Shown in pieces: positions 42,062 through 50,087 of a stretch of DNA of 64,000 nucleotides (positions within the stretch are counted from its first letter, which is position 1; every line of letters starts with the position of its first letter). The DNA comes from Escherichia coli. Its GTDB lineage: Bacteria; Pseudomonadota; Gammaproteobacteria; Enterobacterales; Enterobacteriaceae. Position numbers and translations under genes: made by a program. The notes below the pieces were generated by a model. It saw nothing but the letters and a program-made list of their open reading frames with translations. It did no database searches and had not been told where the DNA came from. The DNA lies in assembly GCF_024700885.2 (NCBI RefSeq), contig NZ_CP117016.1; one strand, 5' to 3'.

Positions 42062-43150
42062 TTACGCTGATTGACAATCGGCAATGGCGTTAAGAACAAG
42101 CTCGTGCGAAACGCCGCTGCGAACTTCACTCTTACCAATTGCCAACGGAAGAATTAAGCGCATCTCTCCCGCAAGGACTTTCTTGTCACGCAGCATATGC
42201 GGTAAATACGCCTGCGCAGACATTTCGCGCGGCCCATTGACCGGTAACCCAGCTCGCGTGAGCAGGGTTATAATACGCTGCGTTTCGGCAGAACTAAACT
42301 GCCCGAGACGTTCCGACGTCCGCGCCGCCATCACCATACCCGCAGCGACCGCTTCACCGTGTAACCAATTGCCATACCCCATTTCAGCTTCAATGGCATG
42401 ACCAAAGGTGTGTCCCAGATTCAGTAAAGCACGTAACCCGGTTTCGCGCTCGTCGGCGGCGACAACTTCTGCCTTCAGTTCACAACAACGGCGAATACAG
42501 TACGCCATTGCCGGACCGTCCAGACGCAACAACGCATCCAGATTCTCTTCCAGCCAGTTGAAAAACGCACCGTCAAGAATAATGCCGTATTTGATGACTT
42601 CTGCCAGCCCCGACGCTAACTCACGCGGGGGAAGCGTTTTCAGACAGTCGAGATCCACCACCACTGAAGCAGGCTGGTAGAACGCGCCAATCATGTTTTT
42701 ACCGAAGGGATGGTTGACCGCAGTTTTGCCGCCAACGGAGGAATCGACCTGCGACAGTAACGTCGTCGGGACTTGAATGAAACGTACACCGCGCTGATAA
42801 CTCGCCGCCGCAAAGCCGGTCAGATCGCCCACTACGCCGCCGCCAAGCGCCACCAGCGTAGTATCGCGACCATGCGGCTTTTGTAACAACGCCGTAAAGA
42901 CGGTATCGAGTACAGCCAGGCTTTTATACTGCTCGCCGTCAGGGAGGATAACGCTATCGACGTTAACACCCGCCTGTTCAAGTACGCCGCGGACCTTATC
43001 GAGATACAGAGGAGCCAGGGTTTCGTTGGTGACCAACATGACCTGCTCGCCCGATTTCAGCGGTAAGAATGAAGCTGGTTCATTAAACAAACCAGATGCG
43101 ATGGTAATTGGGTAACTACGTTCCCCGAGAGTAACGACAATCCTCTCCAT
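42062..43150 (-). CDS. aroB: 3-dehydroquinate synthase AroB, 362 aa
   Basis: Translation [24 protein letters not shown]... matches remembered AroB. Confidence 0.96.
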
Positions 43151-43206
43151 AACGCGACATCCACCTTAATTACTGTACCCGCAGACGAGTGTATATAAAG
43201 CCAGAA

Positions 43207-43728
43207 TTAGTTGCTTTCCAGCATGTGAATAATCTGGTTTGCGACCACTTTAGCGCTTTGATCATCAGTACGAATGGTCACGTCGGCAATCTCTTCATAC
43301 AGCGGATTGCGTTCATTGGCCAACGCTTCCAGAACTTCACGCGGCGGTGTTTCAACGTGCAGCAACGGGCGTTTTTTATCACGCTGCGTGCGTGCAAGTT
43401 GCTTTTCGATGGTCGTTTCAAGATAAACGACAACGCCACGTGCGGAAAGACGGTTACGTGTTTCGCGGGATTTCACAGAGCCGCCGCCAGTAGCCAGCAC
43501 AATACCCTGTTTCTCGGTCAACTCATTGATGACCTTTTCTTCGCGATCGCGGAAGCCTTCTTCGCCTTCTAAATCGAAAACCCAGCCCACATCAGCTCCG
43601 GTTCGTTTCTCAATCTCTTGATCGGAATCGTAAAATTCCATATTGAGTTGTTGAGCTAACTGGCGCCCAATAGTGCTTTTTCCGGCACCCATAGGCCCAA
43701 CCAGAAAGATATTGCGTTTCTCTGCCAT
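43207..43728 (-). CDS. aroK: Shikimate kinase I AroK, 173 aa
   Basis: ORF track 43207..43929 is open for 67 codons upstream; the start at [21 protein letters not shown] (P-loop) gives 173 aa. Confidence 0.93.
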
Positions 43729-44128
43729 TTTTTCGGTACTACTAAGACTATTCGTTAATGATAAACCCGCTTCGCTCAGAGAGCGCCGCAGGACATGAAC
43801 TGAAACCTCATAAGATATTGCGAGAGTCAGACTGAAAATTATCTCAATACTCCAGCGGGTTTGGCAACTGAATAAATCACCCATCCCTCTGCATATCTGG
43901 TCGCTGCAAGCGCGCTGCCTTGCTACCACCGCTCTGGCGATAAATCACCGGGTAAGATTAGCGTAAAAAAGACAGCAAAATGCCGCCTGAATGATAAATC
44001 ATCATCATGGAACGCAGGCAGCGAAGAGCACCAACTCTCAAATCGGTACTCCTTGTATGCTAAATACCTGCGCGCGTCAAATAGATGAAACACGTTCAGC
44101 GTAAAAACATTACCGCTTTTACGGCTGT

Positions 44129-45367
44129 TTACTCACTGGAAACCAGTCGTGGCGTGATAAACACCACTAACTCGCGTCGTTCATCTTCTTTTCCGTCATG
44201 ACGAAATAATTGTCCGAACCAGGGAATGTCGCCAAGCAACGGTACGCTATCCTGACCCGATTTATTTTTACGGGTAAAAATGCCACCCAGCGCCAACGTT
44301 TCTCCGCTTTTGACCTCGACCTGCGTTTCGATCTCCTGCTTATCAATCGCCAGCACTTCGCCATCGGCCTGCTGTAGCACCTGCCCCGGAACGTTCTGGC
44401 TGATGTGTAATTTCAGCCGGATGCGACCTTTTTGTAACACCGTGGGCGTAACTTCCATCCCCAGGACGGCCTCTTTAAATTCCACCGACGTCGCGCCACT
44501 TTCCCCGCTGGAAACCTGATATGGAATTTCGCTCCCCTGTTTAATGCTGGCGGGCTGAAGATGTGAGGCCAGCAGACGCGGACTGGCGATAATATCCAGC
44601 TGCTGTTTTTGTTCGAGCGCGGAAAGCTCAAGATCCAGTAAACGTCCGTTGATGCGTCCAATGTTAAAACCGACATGCGTTGTCGCCGTCGCTACGGAGA
44701 GGTCGCTGCCAAGCGTGGTGACTTGCCCAACGCCACCAGCGTGTTGCGCATCAGCCAACGTCCATTTCACGCCTAACTCACGCAAACTTTTTTCATTAAT
44801 GGTGACAATATGCGCCGACAGCTCAACCTGCCCGACCGGCAGATCCATTTGCGCTACCCACTGTTCAAGCGCGCTTAACGCCGTTTTGTTATCTCGCAGC
44901 AAAAGGCGATTAGTGCGTTTATCGACGGTCATACTCCCTTTGGCACTCAGTAGCTTCTCCCCCGCTTTCGCCAGTTCTCCCGCGTCGGCGTATTGCAGGG
45001 TTATACTGCGATTTTCCAGCGGCAGATTTGCCTGCGCCCGCGCCTGCTCCGCCTCCTGACGGGCGATATTGTCATTCTGCCAGGCAACGGAATGCACCGA
45101 GAGAATGTTGCCCTCCTGACGCGTTATCAGTCCGGCGCTTTTCACTACAGTTTGTAGTGCTTGCTTCCAGGGAACATCTGTTAGATGTAACGACACCGTA
45201 CCGCTGACGTCTGGCGACACCACCAGGTTCAACTTCTCCTGTTCAGCCAGCGCCTGCAACACCTGAGCTACCGGAACGTCATCCACCATCAGTGTCACTT
45301 TTTGCGGCTTTGCCGCCTGTACGCCGGGTATCAGCATCAACAGTAGTGCGGCTATCCATTGCTTCAT
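44129..45367 (-). CDS. hofQ: Secretin-family outer-membrane protein HofQ (PilQ/ComE-like), 412 aa
   Basis: Signal peptide plus C-terminal secretin-like region; matches remembered HofQ. Confidence 0.93.
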   Translation of the reverse strand: MKQWIAALLLMLIPGVQAAKPQKVTLMVDDVPVAQVLQALAEQEKLNLVVSPDVSGTVSLHLTDVPWKQALQTVVKSAGLITRQEGNILSVHSVAWQNDNIARQEAEQARAQANLPLENRSITLQYADAGELAKAGEKLLSAKGSMTVDKRTNRLLLRDNKTALSALEQWVAQMDLPVGQVELSAHIVTINEKSLRELGVKWTLADAQHAGGVGQVTTLGSDLSVATATTHVGFNIGRINGRLLDLELSALEQKQQLDIIASPRLLASHLQPASIKQGSEIPYQVSSGESGATSVEFKEAVLGMEVTPTVLQKGRIRLKLHISQNVPGQVLQQADGEVLAIDKQEIETQVEVKSGETLALGGIFTRKNKSGQDSVPLLGDIPWFGQLFRHDGKEDERRELVVFITPRLVSSE

Positions 45368-45683
45368 TTGTATCTCCTTGCCGTTGCCACAACCATTGTG
45401 GCGGTTCGCAGTTTGTCCCGGTTCCCAGCGTTAGTGCGTCTGGCGTTAGCTGTAAGATCGTCCAGCCGTTTTCCAGCACATCGTTTTGCTGCACCCGTCG
45501 CCATTTTTTTTGCCCATCTTTTATTACACCGATGATGCGCTCGCCTCGCCCTACCATCCCCTGATAGCGCCACTGGCTAAGTTCGCTAATCCGGCATAGA
45601 TCTTCCGGCGGTTTAAAAGGGTCACGCATGCCGGTTAAAAGGCACAATGCAATACCTGCCAACAACCAGCGTTTAACCCTCAT
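45279..45683 (-). CDS. hofP: HofP (PilP-like), 134 aa
   Basis: ORF track 45279..45722; the internal ATG (MRVKRWLLAGIALCLL..., lipoprotein-like) gives 134 aa. The 3' end overlaps the hofQ 5' end by 89 nt. Confidence 0.82.
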   Translation of the reverse strand: MRVKRWLLAGIALCLLTGMRDPFKPPEDLCRISELSQWRYQGMVGRGERIIGVIKDGQKKWRRVQQNDVLENGWTILQLTPDALTLGTGTNCEPPQWLWQRQGDTNEAMDSRTTVDADTRRTGGKAAKSDTDGG

Positions 45684-46113
45684 GCGGCGTCTCCAGTTGT
45701 AGCGTGAACAAAAGGTCATCACCTTCCACGCTTAACGAAAAACGGCTCACGCTGACGTTGCGCTCTGCCAGCCGTGTAAATGCCGACGGCACTGCTTCCC
45801 ACAGCGTTTTCAACACCAACTCACCTCCCTGCGCGGATGGATGCCAGTAAACCAGTTGCGCGCCGGATAACTGAAAATCCAGTGGCGAAAAGGGCAGCGT
45901 TTTTTCCTCGCTGAAGGGAGTGGTGTCTACCAGGCGATACAGTGCGGCCCACTGCTGGTGATGACTCGCCCGTAGTCGAATTAATGCGTCGCTCTCTTCC
46001 TGGTGTGTCGATGACAGAAAAATGAGCGTAACTAACATCATCAACCAGAATGCCCAGCAAAGCTGGCGGAGGCGGGGTGATGTGGCGAACCACCAGTCAA
46101 AGAGCATGTCCAT
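45673..46113 (-). CDS. hofO: HofO (PilO-like), 146 aa
   Basis: ORF track; overlaps hofP by 11 nt and hofN by 17 nt. Confidence 0.85.
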   Translation of the reverse strand: MDMLFDWWFATSPRLRQLCWAFWLMMLVTLIFLSSTHQEESDALIRLRASHHQQWAALYRLVDTTPFSEEKTLPFSPLDFQLSGAQLVYWHPSAQGGELVLKTLWEAVPSAFTRLAERNVSVSRFSLSVEGDDLLFTLQLETPHEG

Positions 46114-46636
46114 CGCTAACCTTCCTTGTTAACTGATACTCAAATTGCCAGCGTCCCTGCGCATCCTGCTGCGTGGCTCCCCGCTGATTGAGATGAAAAG
46201 ACGCATCCTGGCGGAGTGACGTTTCTAGTGCGTTTAACGCGGTAATGCTTGTTGTCAGCCCCTTGATCTCCAGCGTTCCCTGCTGCCAGCTTATCGTTGT
46301 CAGCCAGGCATGTTCGGGTAAAAGCGCCGCCAGTGCTTCCAGCGCAGATTGCCAGTCACGGGTAAATTGTCGCTGGCGCTGCCTTTGCAAACGCTGTTCG
46401 CGTAACTGCTGGCGTTCCAGCAAACGTGGTTTCGTTATCTGTAAGCTGCGGGCGAGTTGTTGTTCCGCCTGAAGCAAAACGGTGTCTACGCGTGCTTCGG
46501 CGTTGCTTGTCAGACGCAGTATTAGCGTTATCCCGACGGCCAGCAGCAGAGGCGCAACGAACATCAGTAACCAGAAACGAAGAAAAGCGGTCCGGCGTTG
46601 CTGTCGCCAGGGCAAAAAATTAATTGGCGGGTTCAT
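46097..46636 (-). CDS. hofN: HofN (PilN-like), 179 aa
   Basis: ORF track; N-terminal TM segment then a coiled-coil-like Q/R-rich region. Confidence 0.85.
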   Translation of the reverse strand: MNPPINFLPWRQQRRTAFLRFWLLMFVAPLLLAVGITLILRLTSNAEARVDTVLLQAEQQLARSLQITKPRLLERQQLREQRLQRQRQRQFTRDWQSALEALAALLPEHAWLTTISWQQGTLEIKGLTTSITALNALETSLRQDASFHLNQRGATQQDAQGRWQFEYQLTRKVSDGHAL

Positions 46637-47415
46637 CAGTACACCTTCCCAAGCGCCAGCCCCAGCGCGATGGCAAAGTCTCCACCAGGCGGCGGTAGCG
46701 GCGGCTGACGAACAGAAACGGCCTCCCAGGGGTCAAATCCGCCTTCGCCACATAGCGCGACGCTTTCGGGATCAACGCATAACGCTGCCGCCAGCTCCTT
46801 CGCGCTAGTCATCCCCACCGCCAGTTTGCGCCCCCAGCTATAGCGCGTCGCCCACAGCCACTGTTCGTTATCACGCCAGGCCAGACATTGCTGATGAGAA
46901 GGTAAAAAAGGCAGGAATCGCTGTAATGCACTGGCATCCGGGGTGATCGCGCTAACATGAACACGCAACCTTTCTGCCAGAGTAAGCAGCGTTGCCAGCT
47001 CTTTGCTTTGCGCGGCAGTCACGTTATAGGCGGGACTGAGTGAGTCTTCGCTGTAATCGAAGCGCAGGGAGTCCGGATCCATATCCAGCTCGCGGGCCAT
47101 CGTCCCGGACAGCCAGGCCGTTTGCTCCCGCTCACCAAGGGACATCGACGGGCGTGGAAATGACCGCTGTAATGTGCGACTGGCGGGAAATGCCAACATG
47201 ATGTGATGACGCTGCGGCAGTTCGCGACTCCACGGTAACAACGTGTTAGCCAGCCGCTGCGCATCAACAATCCGCCCATCTTTGATAATGTCGTGCGCCA
47301 GCGGCAACCGCCACCAGCGTTGCAAAAAGCATTCTTTTGCGCCCCGCACGATAGCAACCGCTACCGCTTCTTGCTGTTGTAAATGCAAACCTATTTGCCA
47401 GCTCTTAAATGCCAT
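46636..47415 (-). CDS. hofM: HofM (PilM-like), 259 aa
   Basis: ORF track 46636..47442; the internal ATG (MAFKSWQIGLHLQQ...) gives 259 aa. Confidence 0.85.
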   Translation of the reverse strand: MAFKSWQIGLHLQQQEAVAVAIVRGAKECFLQRWWRLPLAHDIIKDGRIVDAQRLANTLLPWSRELPQRHHIMLAFPASRTLQRSFPRPSMSLGEREQTAWLSGTMARELDMDPDSLRFDYSEDSLSPAYNVTAAQSKELATLLTLAERLRVHVSAITPDASALQRFLPFLPSHQQCLAWRDNEQWLWATRYSWGRKLAVGMTSAKELAAALCVDPESVALCGEGGFDPWEAVSVRQPPLPPPGGDFAIALGLALGKVY

Positions 47416-47534
47416 TGTGATGATCTCCTTATCACCCGTCACTCTGACGGGTATATCAATGCGTCTGGCTTGCCTTTATACTACCGCGCGTTTGTTTATA
47501 AACTGCCCAAATGAAACTAAATGGGAAATTTCCA

Positions 47535-50087
47535 GTGAAGTTCGTAAAGTATTTTTTGATCCTTGCAGTCTGTTGCATTCTGCTGGGAGCAGGCTCGATT
47601 TATGGCCTATACCGCTACATCGAGCCACAACTGCCGGATGTGGCGACATTAAAAGATGTTCGCCTGCAAATTCCGATGCAGATTTACAGCGCCGATGGCG
47701 AGCTGATTGCTCAATACGGTGAGAAACGTCGTATTCCGGTTACGTTGGATCAAATCCCGCCGGAGATGGTGAAAGCCTTTATCGCGACGGAAGACAGCCG
47801 CTTCTACGAGCATCACGGCGTTGACCCGGTGGGGATCTTCCGTGCGGCAAGTGTGGCGCTGTTCTCCGGCCACGCGTCACAAGGGGCGAGTACCATTACC
47901 CAGCAGCTGGCGAGAAACTTCTTCCTCAGTCCAGAACGCACGCTGATGCGTAAGATTAAGGAAGTCTTCCTCGCGATTCGCATTGAACAGTTGCTGACGA
48001 AAGACGAGATCCTCGAGCTTTATCTGAACAAGATTTACCTCGGTTACCGCGCCTATGGTGTCGGTGCTGCGGCACAAGTCTATTTCGGTAAAACGGTCGA
48101 CCAACTGACGCTGAACGAAATGGCGGTGATAGCCGGGCTGCCGAAAGCGCCTTCCACCTTCAACCCGCTCTACTCGATGGATCGTGCCGTCGCGCGGCGT
48201 AACGTCGTACTGTCGCGGATGCTGGATGAAGGGTATATCACCCAACAACAGTTCGATCAGACACGCACTGAGGCGATTAACGCTAACTATCACGCGCCGG
48301 AGATTGCTTTCTCTGCGCCGTACCTGAGCGAAATGGTGCGCCAGGAGATGTATAACCGTTATGGCGAAAGTGCCTATGAAGACGGTTATCGCATTTACAC
48401 CACCATCACCCGCAAAGTACAGCAGGCCGCACAGCAGGCAGTACGTAATAACGTGCTGGACTACGACATGCGCCACGGCTATCGCGGCCCGGCAAATGTG
48501 CTGTGGAAAGTGGGCGAATCGGCGTGGGATAACAACAAGATTACCGATACGCTGAAGGCGCTGCCGACCTATGGTCCGCTGCTGCCTGCCGCAGTCACCA
48601 GCGCCAATCCTCAGGAAGCGACGGCGATGCTGGCGGACGGGTCGACCGTCGCATTGAGTATGGAAGGCGTTCGCTGGGCGCGTCCTTACCGTTCGGATAC
48701 TCAGCAGGGACCGACGCCGCGTAAAGTGACCGATGTTCTGCAAACGGGTCAGCAAATCTGGGTTCGTCAGGTTGGCGATGCATGGTGGCTGGCGCAAGTG
48801 CCGGAAGTGAACTCGGCGCTGGTGTCGATCAATCCGCAAAACGGTGCCGTTATGGCGCTGGTCGGTGGCTTTGATTTCAATCAGAGCAAGTTTAACCGCG
48901 CCACCCAGGCACTGCGTCAGGTAGGTTCCAACATCAAACCGTTCCTCTACACCGCGGCGATGGATAAAGGTCTGACGCTGGCAAGTATGTTGAACGATGT
49001 GCCAATTTCCCGCTGGGATGCAGGTGCCGGTTCTGACTGGCAGCCGAAGAACTCACCACCGCAGTATGCCGGTCCAATTCGCTTACGTCAGGGACTGGGC
49101 CAGTCGAAAAACGTGGTGATGGTACGCGCAATGCGGGCGATGGGCGTCGACTACGCTGCAGAATATCTGCAACGCTTCGGCTTCCCGGCGCAAAACATTG
49201 TCCACACCGAATCGCTGGCGCTGGGTTCAGCGTCCTTCACCCCAATGCAGGTGGCGCGTGGCTACGCGGTCATGGCGAACGGCGGCTTCCTGGTGGACCC
49301 GTGGTTTATCAGCAAAATTGAAAACGATCAGGGCGGCGTGATTTTCGAAGCGAAACCGAAAGTAGCCTGCCCGGAATGCGATATTCCGGTGATTTACGGT
49401 GATACGCAGAAATCGAACGTGCTGGAAAATAACGATGTTGAAGATGTCGCTATCTCCCGCGAGCAGCAGAATGTTTCTGTGCCAATGCCGCAGCTGGAGC
49501 AGGCAAATCAGGCGTTAGTCGCGAAGACTGGCGCGCAGGAGTACGCACCGCACGTCATCAACACTCCGCTGGCATTCCTGATTAAGAGTGCTTTGAACAC
49601 CAATATCTTTGGTGAGCCAGGCTGGCAGGGTACCGGCTGGCGTGCAGGTCGTGATTTGCAGCGTCGCGATATCGGCGGGAAAACCGGTACCACTAACAGT
49701 TCGAAAGATGCGTGGTTTTCGGGTTACGGTCCGGGCGTTGTGACCTCGGTCTGGATTGGCTTTGATGATCACCGTCGTAATCTCGGTCATACAACGGCTT
49801 CCGGAGCGATTAAAGATCAGATCTCAGGTTACGAAGGCGGTGCCAAGAGTGCCCAGCCTGCATGGGACGCTTATATGAAAGCCGTTCTTGAAGGTGTGCC
49901 GGAGCAGCCGCTGACGCCGCCGCCGGGTATTGTGACGGTGAATATCGATCGCAGCACCGGGCAGTTAGCTAATGGTGGCAACAGCCGCGAAGAGTATTTC
50001 ATCGAAGGTACGCAGCCGACACAACAGGCGGTGCACGAGGTGGGAACGACCATTATCGATAATGGCGAGGCACAGGAATTGTTCTGA
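47535..50087 (+). CDS. mrcA: Penicillin-binding protein 1A (MrcA / PBP1a), 850 aa, probable GTG start
   Basis: ORF track 47511..50087; the GTG at 47535 (VKFVKYFLILAVCC...) gives 850 aa; glycosyltransferase and transpeptidase motifs (e.g. SNIKPF-type region). Confidence 0.95.
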   Translation: MKFVKYFLILAVCCILLGAGSIYGLYRYIEPQLPDVATLKDVRLQIPMQIYSADGELIAQYGEKRRIPVTLDQIPPEMVKAFIATEDSRFYEHHGVDPVGIFRAASVALFSGHASQGASTITQQLARNFFLSPERTLMRKIKEVFLAIRIEQLLTKDEILELYLNKIYLGYRAYGVGAAAQVYFGKTVDQLTLNEMAVIAGLPKAPSTFNPLYSMDRAVARRNVVLSRMLDEGYITQQQFDQTRTEAINANYHAPEIAFSAPYLSEMVRQEMYNRYGESAYEDGYRIYTTITRKVQQAAQQAVRNNVLDYDMRHGYRGPANVLWKVGESAWDNNKITDTLKALPTYGPLLPAAVTSANPQEATAMLADGSTVALSMEGVRWARPYRSDTQQGPTPRKVTDVLQTGQQIWVRQVGDAWWLAQVPEVNSALVSINPQNGAVMALVGGFDFNQSKFNRATQALRQVGSNIKPFLYTAAMDKGLTLASMLNDVPISRWDAGAGSDWQPKNSPPQYAGPIRLRQGLGQSKNVVMVRAMRAMGVDYAAEYLQRFGFPAQNIVHTESLALGSASFTPMQVARGYAVMANGGFLVDPWFISKIENDQGGVIFEAKPKVACPECDIPVIYGDTQKSNVLENNDVEDVAISREQQNVSVPMPQLEQANQALVAKTGAQEYAPHVINTPLAFLIKSALNTNIFGEPGWQGTGWRAGRDLQRRDIGGKTGTTNSSKDAWFSGYGPGVVTSVWIGFDDHRRNLGHTTASGAIKDQISGYEGGAKSAQPAWDAYMKAVLEGVPEQPLTPPPGIVTVNIDRSTGQLANGGNSREEYFIEGTQPTQQAVHEVGTTIIDNGEAQELF

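Follow-up and report, generated by a model that had tools for sequence, protein, structure and literature searches.

The hofMNOPQ operon lies in a 64,000-nt stretch of DNA from Escherichia coli (NCBI RefSeq assembly GCF_024700885.2, contig NZ_CP117016.1), which is referred to here as the window. The five genes very probably encode the alignment subcomplex and the secretin of a type IVa pilus or DNA-uptake machine that is controlled through CRP-S sites, with the long overlap between hofP and hofQ being mainly a by-product. The operon is well known and already annotated; as textbook E. coli genome content, with published work on its regulation, DNA uptake, nutrient use and pilus assembly, its confirmation adds nothing new. 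The first-pass annotation had described five co-directional genes with overlaps of 1, 17, 11 and 89 nt, divergent from mrcA and immediately upstream of aroKB. The open reading frame (ORF) list and the sequence bear out five intact genes in one direction, all on the minus strand (which had been left unstated), and the overlaps are exact (Table 1). The RefSeq boundaries from the Prokaryotic Genome Annotation Pipeline (PGAP) are identical on a 100%-identical E. coli chromosome and on K-12 MG1655. The divergent mrcA starts with GTG at 47535, 119 nt from hofM, and aroK (43207-43728) is indeed the next gene on the strand of hofQ, beyond a 400-nt spacer with a promoter-like site.

We compared starts and junctions over 80 loci, one genome per Enterobacteriaceae species, with the five genes modelled in each. 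N-termini align at the annotated starts across 70+ species. Overlaps recur at each junction: 1 or 4 nt between hofM and hofN in 59/78 species, 17 nt between hofN and hofO in 49/77, 11 nt between hofO and hofP in 64/77, and 89 nt between hofP and hofQ in 35/78 (80-98 nt in 63/78). Each downstream gene has its Shine-Dalgarno (SD) sequence within the preceding gene (GGGAAGG for hofN, AAGGAAGG for hofO, GGAG for hofP and AAGGAG for hofQ), and that of hofM is AAGGAG. The short overlaps of 1, 17 and 11 nt are consistent with translational coupling, and initiation at hofQ is probably independent, from its own strong SD. As far as can be judged from sequence, the 89-nt overlap is real, with an AAGGAG SD and a signal peptide that only the upstream start retains.

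That the hofP 3' end is read in two frames across the hofQ 5' end, as the first-pass annotation had it, is confirmed in the sequence. The hofP frame lies one base upstream of the hofQ frame, such that each hofP codon consists of the third base of a hofQ codon and the first two bases of the next. A stop in the hofP frame requires a hofQ codon NNT with AAN, AGN or GAN (Lys, Asn, Ser/Arg, Asp or Glu) after it. Because the hydrophobic core of the HofQ signal peptide is free of these residues, the hofP frame is open there by default, and E. coli has only two at-risk junctions ahead of the hofP stop. The stop itself sits in the conserved VVDDVP of HofQ, in the first strand of the N0 domain. We propose that hofP must run through the hofQ SD and start codon and would then continue in a stop-poor frame, where the first likely stop would be the TGA formed by GAT-GAN in the conserved VDD motif. 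The resulting 30-residue HofP tail would be a disordered, fast-changing by-product. Residues 105-134 have a predicted local distance difference test score (pLDDT) below 50 in the AlphaFold2 (AF2) model and are predicted to be disordered. The tail is conserved only where hofQ dictates it, namely at the SD (R-Q-G), the start region (N-E-A-M-D) and the VVDD codons (G-G-G-stop); in HofP alignments, the 'RQG/REG' whose codons carry the hofQ SD is nearly invariant. Our reading is that the overlap is real, inherited across the family and mainly a by-product of the HofQ N-terminal sequence, with any selection on it being weak. A special dual-coding device is not indicated, the overlap being largely expected from the HofQ sequence.

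The extent of this expectation was estimated with a null model that took the frequencies of T-ending codons in the same dinucleotide context from the rest of hofQ. Under this null, the frame has a mean probability of 0.49 of being open as far as the D-D junction. In seven clusters of species (grouped by signal-peptide DNA) it closes ahead of the VDD motif. For six of these (L031, L052, L057, L064/L075, L070 and L080, with overlaps of 59-80 nt) the null probability of an open frame is only 0.13-0.26, owing to the many Lys, Asp, Glu and Asn residues in their mature HofQ N-termini. The exception is Phytobacter/Kosakonia, which closes early (38 nt) despite a null probability of 0.70.

Some results weigh against the reading that we favour, several of them from the same comparison. 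The frame is open to the D-D junction in 55/71 species (35 expected) and in 23 of the 30 clusters (16.7 expected, P ~0.008; the clusters are not phylogenetically independent units, which makes this P value optimistic), and 52 of the 55 species that reach the junction stop exactly there, against an expected 66%. In addition, coupling at the short overlaps is deduced from geometry only, the coordinates given below for the CRP-S sites are inferred matches to published ones, and HofO is presumed to be the PilO counterpart from the position of its gene between the PilN-like and PilP-like genes. The excess of open frames may be explained by inheritance, and weak selection on tail length could contribute.

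These counts bear most directly on an alternative in which selection maintains the long overlap, either through a function of the HofP tail (a linker or contact to HofQ or peptidoglycan) or through tuning of the HofP:HofQ ratio. Also on its side, hofQ synonymous divergence is about halved in the overlap: for codons 2-29 it is 0.53 times the value for the remaining codons, and it is reduced in 13/14 independent pairs. As proof of a dual-coding constraint this reduction was rejected, since the 5' ends of neighbouring genes drop equally or more. The corresponding 5'-end ratios are 0.05 for aroK, 0.21 for mrcA, 0.65 for dam, 0.67 for aroB and 0.85 for hofM, and this span of 0.05-0.85 means that the drop is not specific to the overlap; in our judgement, it does not exceed the 5'-end drops of aroK, mrcA, aroB and dam. 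Other evidence speaks against maintenance of the overlap. The tail is predicted to be disordered and all of its conserved residues are explained by the hofQ SD, start codon and VVDD codons. In some genera the overlap has been cut to 4-62 nt (Leclercia, with only 4 nt, Phytobacter/Kosakonia, Raoultella, Pseudocitrobacter and others) or lengthened to 122-140 nt (Kluyvera and one Enterobacter), and the operon is still intact. We therefore consider selection on the long overlap to be unlikely. A slightly less probable proposal is that the HofP tail, or hofP translation across the hofQ start, is selected in most Enterobacteriaceae (for stoichiometry or secretin docking) and that, separately, a conserved 154-nt block next to hofM (described below) is a shared cis-element coupling PBP1a and pilus expression through overlapping divergent transcripts.

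With the overlap understood mainly as a by-product, the small new point is that a specific, largely neutral cause can be given for the long overlap: the frame across a signal peptide is poor in stops and is closed by the codons of a conserved secretin motif. By default, then, long overlaps onto genes that start with a signal peptide should be frequent, and they need not be a sign of dual coding. The overlap comparison covers the Enterobacteriaceae; a HofQ search toward Pasteurellaceae and Vibrio yielded close relatives only.

We next consider whether the genes are maintained. The first-pass annotation had named untranslated pseudogenes as a finding that would speak against it; the frames are intact and the ratio of nonsynonymous to synonymous divergence (dN/dS) is 0.02-0.19. 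These values were obtained by the Nei-Gojobori method against E. albertii, E. whittamii and a cryptic-clade strain. Between species, hofQ has a dN/dS of 0.016-0.024 and hofM, hofN, hofO and hofP have 0.09-0.19, and on the strength of these values (0.016-0.19) all five genes are under purifying selection. HofM, HofN, HofO and HofP evolve 5-10 times faster than the HofQ secretin. Between the window and K-12, hofQ has a dN/dS of 0.03, akin to mrcA, dam and nudE (0.02-0.05), and hofM, hofN and hofO have values of 0.22-0.81 from few substitutions. That the secretin is constrained about ten-fold more than its four partners is a small new point. The 3.6-kb stretch is matched in 5425 of 5426 complete E. 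coli genomes, several at 100% identity.

Could the operon nonetheless be a decaying relic, untranslated or non-functional and kept by linkage to mrcA and aroKB? Expression is very low in laboratory media and chromosomal transformation is absent without recombineering (PMC1635313, PMC3330819), HofM-P diverge fast, with the elevated hofM, hofN and hofO ratios against K-12 just given, and two Citrobacter species have disrupted gene models. However, all five frames are uninterrupted in almost every one of 78 species, between-species dN/dS is low, the operon is present in all but one of the complete E. coli genomes, and hofQ mutants have published phenotypes in DNA uptake (PMC3330819) and in kidney colonisation by uropathogenic E. 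coli (PMC2649431). Taken together, these make a relic very improbable. The first-pass annotation had also called the retention of an intact machine notable; the intactness stands, and the puzzle is one that has long been recognised and partly answered (PMC1635313, PMC3330819).

The first-pass annotation had further identified the products as PilM-, PilN-, PilO- and PilP-like proteins and a secretin, HofQ. The PilQ models, a PilN domain and fold matches for HofM and HofP bear this out for the PilM-, PilN- and PilP-like proteins and the secretin. HofQ matches the Pfam families STN, Secretin_N and Secretin (PF00263), all above cut-off, which gives N0, N1 and a secretin core. It scores 449 bits against TIGR02515 PilQ (cut-off 284), 856 bits against the NCBIfam HofQ model NF007851 (cut-off 598) and 194 bits against the GspD model, below the GspD cut-off. 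Its best match in the PDB is the V. cholerae competence-pilus PilQ (6W6M, E 6e-75, residues 23-409). From its sequence, HofQ is classed as a PilQ-family outer-membrane secretin that does without the AMIN domain, and by homology to the 14-mer 6W6M it would form a multimeric outer-membrane channel for a pilus or DNA. For HofN, Pfam PilN (PF05137) is matched with 38.1 bits (cut-off 22.8), and the N-terminus (MNPPINFLPWRQQRR) contains a motif, [VI]N[LF]LPWR, that is conserved in 79 sequences; in PilN, the N-terminal motif is the PilM-binding segment (PDB 2YCH, 5EOU). We assign HofN, on this sequence evidence, as a PilN-like bitopic inner-membrane protein.

HofM and HofP required structural comparison. 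HofM scores below the PilM sequence models (TIGR01175, 17 bits against a cut-off of 133; no Pfam PilM match), and its only Pfam match is a weak one to T2SSL (17.9 bits, cut-off 25.5). A profile of 73 HofM orthologues reaches Myxococcus xanthus PilM at E 3e-5. The AF2 model of HofM has a pLDDT of 90.5, and its top Foldseek matches are Pseudomonas aeruginosa PilM (5EOY, E 1.4e-13, query-normalised TM-score (TMq) 0.71) and Thermus thermophilus PilM (2YCH, E 6e-11), with PilM ranking ahead of the GspL/EpsL cytoplasmic domain and FtsA. Because the profile matches and the confident model finds PilM first, HofM is modelled as a cytoplasmic, shortened PilM-type protein with an actin fold. HofP matches only its own Pfam family (HofP, PF10748, 264 bits), and with its profile M. 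xanthus PilP is matched no better than at E 0.02. The AF2 model has a beta-sandwich at residues 31-104 (pLDDT ~90), for which the top 11 PDB matches in Foldseek are all PilP, the homology region (HR) of GspC, or LspC (best E 2e-4, probability 1.0; target-normalised TM-score (TMt) up to 0.74). The model thus points to a periplasmic beta-sandwich protein of the PilP/GspC-HR type. In 79 aligned HofP sequences there is no conserved Cys of a lipobox at the end of the signal sequence, and C14 of E. coli is not conserved; HofP is probably not a lipoprotein, since a conserved LLTG-M-RDPF stands where PilP has its lipobox cysteine. For HofO, only the dedicated Pfam family HofO (PF25319) was matched (88 bits), with no match in NCBIfam.

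Some of these matches could also be taken to place the cluster in a type II secretion system (T2SS; GspC/L/M/D-like), given that the HofM model also matches the GspL/EpsL cytoplasmic domain (TMt 0.65-0.67), with the weak T2SSL match besides, and the HofP model matches GspC-HR (TMt 0.74), but this is extremely improbable: HofQ favours the PilQ model over GspD and finds a competence PilQ as its best structure, the top-ranked structures for HofM and HofP are those of PilM and PilP, a PilN domain and the PilM-binding motif are present in HofN, and the M-N-O-P-Q order together with Sxy co-regulation with the pilin gene ppdD (PMC1635313) is the pattern of a type IVa pilus or competence system. Similarities to the T2SS are real at the level of folds: the GspL cytoplasmic domain shares the HofM fold, GspC HR shares the HofP core fold (GspC-GspD N0 complex, 3OSS) and the secretin core is related to HofQ. 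However, HofQ falls below the GspD family cut-off, and hof has separate M and N proteins where the T2SS has a fused GspL.

The secretin assignment also bears on the hofQ start. The HofQ signal peptide, judged by inspection of the translation, has an n-region with Lys, a hydrophobic core and a cleavage-type motif VQA/A (MKQWIAALLLMLIPGVQA/AKP). A further alternative, also extremely improbable, is that hofQ starts downstream of the hofP stop and the overlap is an annotation artefact, for which one might cite that no start-site mapping data were found for hofQ and that an in-frame ATG (M27) and GTG codons lie further in. But M27 is still upstream of the hofP stop, and HofQ, which as a secretin depends on its signal peptide for access to the outer membrane, would lose it with a start beyond 45279. 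The ATG at 45367 is preceded at 6-nt spacing by a consensus AAGGAG SD and is followed by an N-terminal signal peptide at the same place, with divergent sequence, in 71/71 species analysed. A literature search on hofP/yrfA returned unrelated papers only, with no start-site or ribosome-profiling data found for the hof genes, nor any expression or protein data for the HofP tail.

Among the closest known systems is the Haemophilus influenzae comABCDE operon, likewise a five-gene operon of PilM/N/O/P/Q type, required for DNA uptake and under the control of Sxy and of a CRP-S site overlapping the upstream ORF (PMC1635313); in that study, yrfD (= hofM) is treated as the comA orthologue. Unlike the naturally transformable H. 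influenzae, E. coli has to be given artificial sxy expression and recombineering for uptake to be scored (PMC3330819), and for Enterobacteriaceae the prediction is a pair of CRP-S sites, against one in H. influenzae. The PilMNOPQ clusters of P. aeruginosa and M. xanthus have the same gene order, with PilM and PilP as the best structural matches to HofM and HofP, a HofQ that passes the PilQ model and a PilM-binding PilN motif that is kept in HofN. They differ in that HofM, at 259 aa, falls short of the ~354 aa of PilM by ~95 residues and scores below the PilM sequence models, that PilP is a lipoprotein (according to PDB titles) where HofP does without the lipobox cysteine, and that HofQ (412 aa) does without the N-terminal AMIN domains of the 714-901-aa PilQ proteins. 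The closest solved structure to HofQ, Vibrio cholerae PilQ 6W6M, belongs to a DNA-uptake pilus under an Sxy orthologue (PMC1635313), but that protein is 571 aa long, with ~135 extra N-terminal residues compared with HofQ.

From these solved homologues, a working model can be put together in which HofM would clamp the conserved HofN N-terminus, HofN and HofO in the inner membrane would recruit HofP, and the HofP beta-sandwich would dock on the N0 domain of the HofQ ring, through which the PpdD pilus and incoming DNA may pass. The short overlaps with internal SDs would then couple the translation of subunits needed in fixed ratios. Published work agrees with such a role. Sxy-dependent DNA uptake in E. 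coli is lost in hofQ::kan (Sinha and Redfield, PMC3330819). Growth on DNA needs homologues of competence genes, according to work of the Finkel laboratory as summarised in PMC3330819. Kidney colonisation by uropathogenic strains is affected by hofQ (PMC2649431), and a plasmid set with which pili are assembled in E. coli includes a hofMNOPQ fragment (bioRxiv 10.1101/856302).

Following the published work, the operon would be transcribed from a weak CRP-S promoter that depends on Sxy and on CRP with cyclic AMP (cAMP), with its sites within the divergent mrcA, and it is nearly silent in laboratory culture. Cameron and Redfield (PMC1635313) found weak specific CRP binding to the promoter fragment of yrfD and a 16-fold induction of yrfD by Sxy that strictly depends on CRP and cAMP. 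They predicted two CRP-S sites for E. coli comA/yrfD, one of them >200 bp from the start codon (-246). Their electrophoretic mobility shift assay (EMSA) primers map to ~47565-47690 of the window, within the mrcA coding sequence. A strict CRP-S search (TGCGA-N6-TCGCA, <=2 mismatches) found no site near hofM, and the total for the window was below that of shuffled sequences. A relaxed half-site scan gave a proximal and a distal candidate (Table 1). The proximal candidate is nearly invariant in 20 genera, and both candidates fall inside the published EMSA fragment. The 3' end of the distal candidate fits the published -246, and synonymous sites there vary normally. We infer that the two candidates are the published CRP-S sites.

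Table 1 Coordinates of the features of the hofMNOPQ operon and its flanks in the window.
Feature	Position	Strand	Length	Remarks
hofM	46636-47415	minus	259 aa	ORF list; AAGGAG SD at 47425-47430
hofN	46097-46636	minus	179 aa	1-nt overlap with hofM (TGATG)
hofO	45673-46113	minus	146 aa	17-nt overlap with hofN
hofP	45279-45683	minus	134 aa	11-nt overlap with hofO
hofQ	44129-45367	minus	412 aa	89-nt overlap with hofP
hofP/hofQ dual-frame region	45279-45367	minus	89 nt	HofP residues 105-134, HofQ codons 1-30
hofP stop TGA	45279-45281	minus		T of HofQ D29 (GAT) and GA of D30 (GAC)
hofQ SD AAGGAG	45374-45379	minus		6 nt before ATG; within HofP codons R-Q-G-D
HofQ signal peptide MKQWIAALLLMLIPGVQA	45314-45367	minus		codons 1-18
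Candidate proximal CRP-S site TAAATCGAGCCTGCTCCCAGCA	47581-47602	minus		-187 to -166 from hofM ATG; mrcA codons 16-23; relaxed half-site scan, 8/10
Candidate distal CRP-S site ATCTGCATCGGAATTTGCAGGC	47662-47683	minus		-268 to -247; in mrcA coding sequence; relaxed scan, 7/10
Hairpin CCCGTCA-GAG-TGACGGG	47435-47451	minus		directly 5' of hofM SD
Terminator-like hairpin and T-run (weak)	44112-44125	minus		just past hofQ stop; consensus scan only

There were some further observations on the operon in individual genomes. One of the 5426 complete E. coli genomes had no match to the operon (query 44000-47600), and one matching copy was on a record labelled as a plasmid. The two disrupted Citrobacter loci are C. 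koseri NCTC10786 (L039), in which hofM and hofN are truncated and the hofQ match begins only at residue 38 or 76, and C. amalonaticus AUH_CA_2023_1 (L013), in which hofM/hofO are frame-disrupted; either sporadic decay of the operon or assembly error could account for them. E. coli HofQ variants in the protein database (P0075, P0079, P0085, P0096, P0089 and P0083) have in-frame deletions of 242-263, 344-371, 166-199 or 83-102, and one entry is a 517-aa HofP-HofQ fusion. Lineage-specific inactivation of HofQ was rejected, as the segments 242-263 and 344-371 are present in at least 5423 of the 5426 complete genomes; the variants that lack them are rare or artefacts of draft assemblies. Within Escherichia there is a sharp rate step at the hofP/hofQ boundary, HofQ being 97-98% identical and HofM-P 75-90%. 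Cysteines C30 and C92 of HofP do not vary over 79 sequences, suggesting that they form a disulfide in the beta-sandwich.

On the aroK side, the best sigma-70-like site of the region is in the hofQ-aroK spacer (43838-43867, minus strand; TTGCCA, 18-nt spacer, TG-GATAAT, 10/12). By its sequence this is a likely aroK promoter, in which case aroKB transcription would be independent of the poorly expressed hof operon. The number of terminator-like sites in the region, including the weak one just past hofQ, is not above the shuffled expectation, and a repeat scan of the operon found short repeats at chance level only.

On the other side, the hofM-mrcA control region was examined for RNA elements and conservation. 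The hairpin directly upstream of the hofM SD has moderate support: 76% of cells are paired over 62 sequences, compared with 15-57% in slid controls, with some two-sided (compensatory) changes. RNAalifold on the hofM leader did not select it; as a palindrome, it could be part of the hofM transcript or of the mrcA transcript. In the 64-kb window, no Rfam family reached its gathering score. A scan of 43000-48000 with E values up to 1 gave a partial, 26-nt match to asponA (anti-ponA RNA; ponA = mrcA) at 47664-47689 (minus strand, hofM-sense), which was rejected as a chance match at E 0.39 and 14.7 bits, far below the gathering score. The unusual conservation of this control region is a small new point. 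A 154-nt block (47452-47605), comprising most of the hofM-mrcA intergenic region and mrcA codons 1-24, has 90-96% identity in comparisons of E. coli with Salmonella, Citrobacter, Enterobacter, Lelliottia and Klebsiella; for comparison, the 300 nt past the hofQ stop, in the hofQ-aroK spacer, are only 58-66% identical. The candidate proximal CRP-S site falls in this block, and across 75 species synonymous changes are nearly absent from mrcA codons 1-21. Probably this block contains the promoter and leader of mrcA, the CRP-S promoter of hofM, or both.

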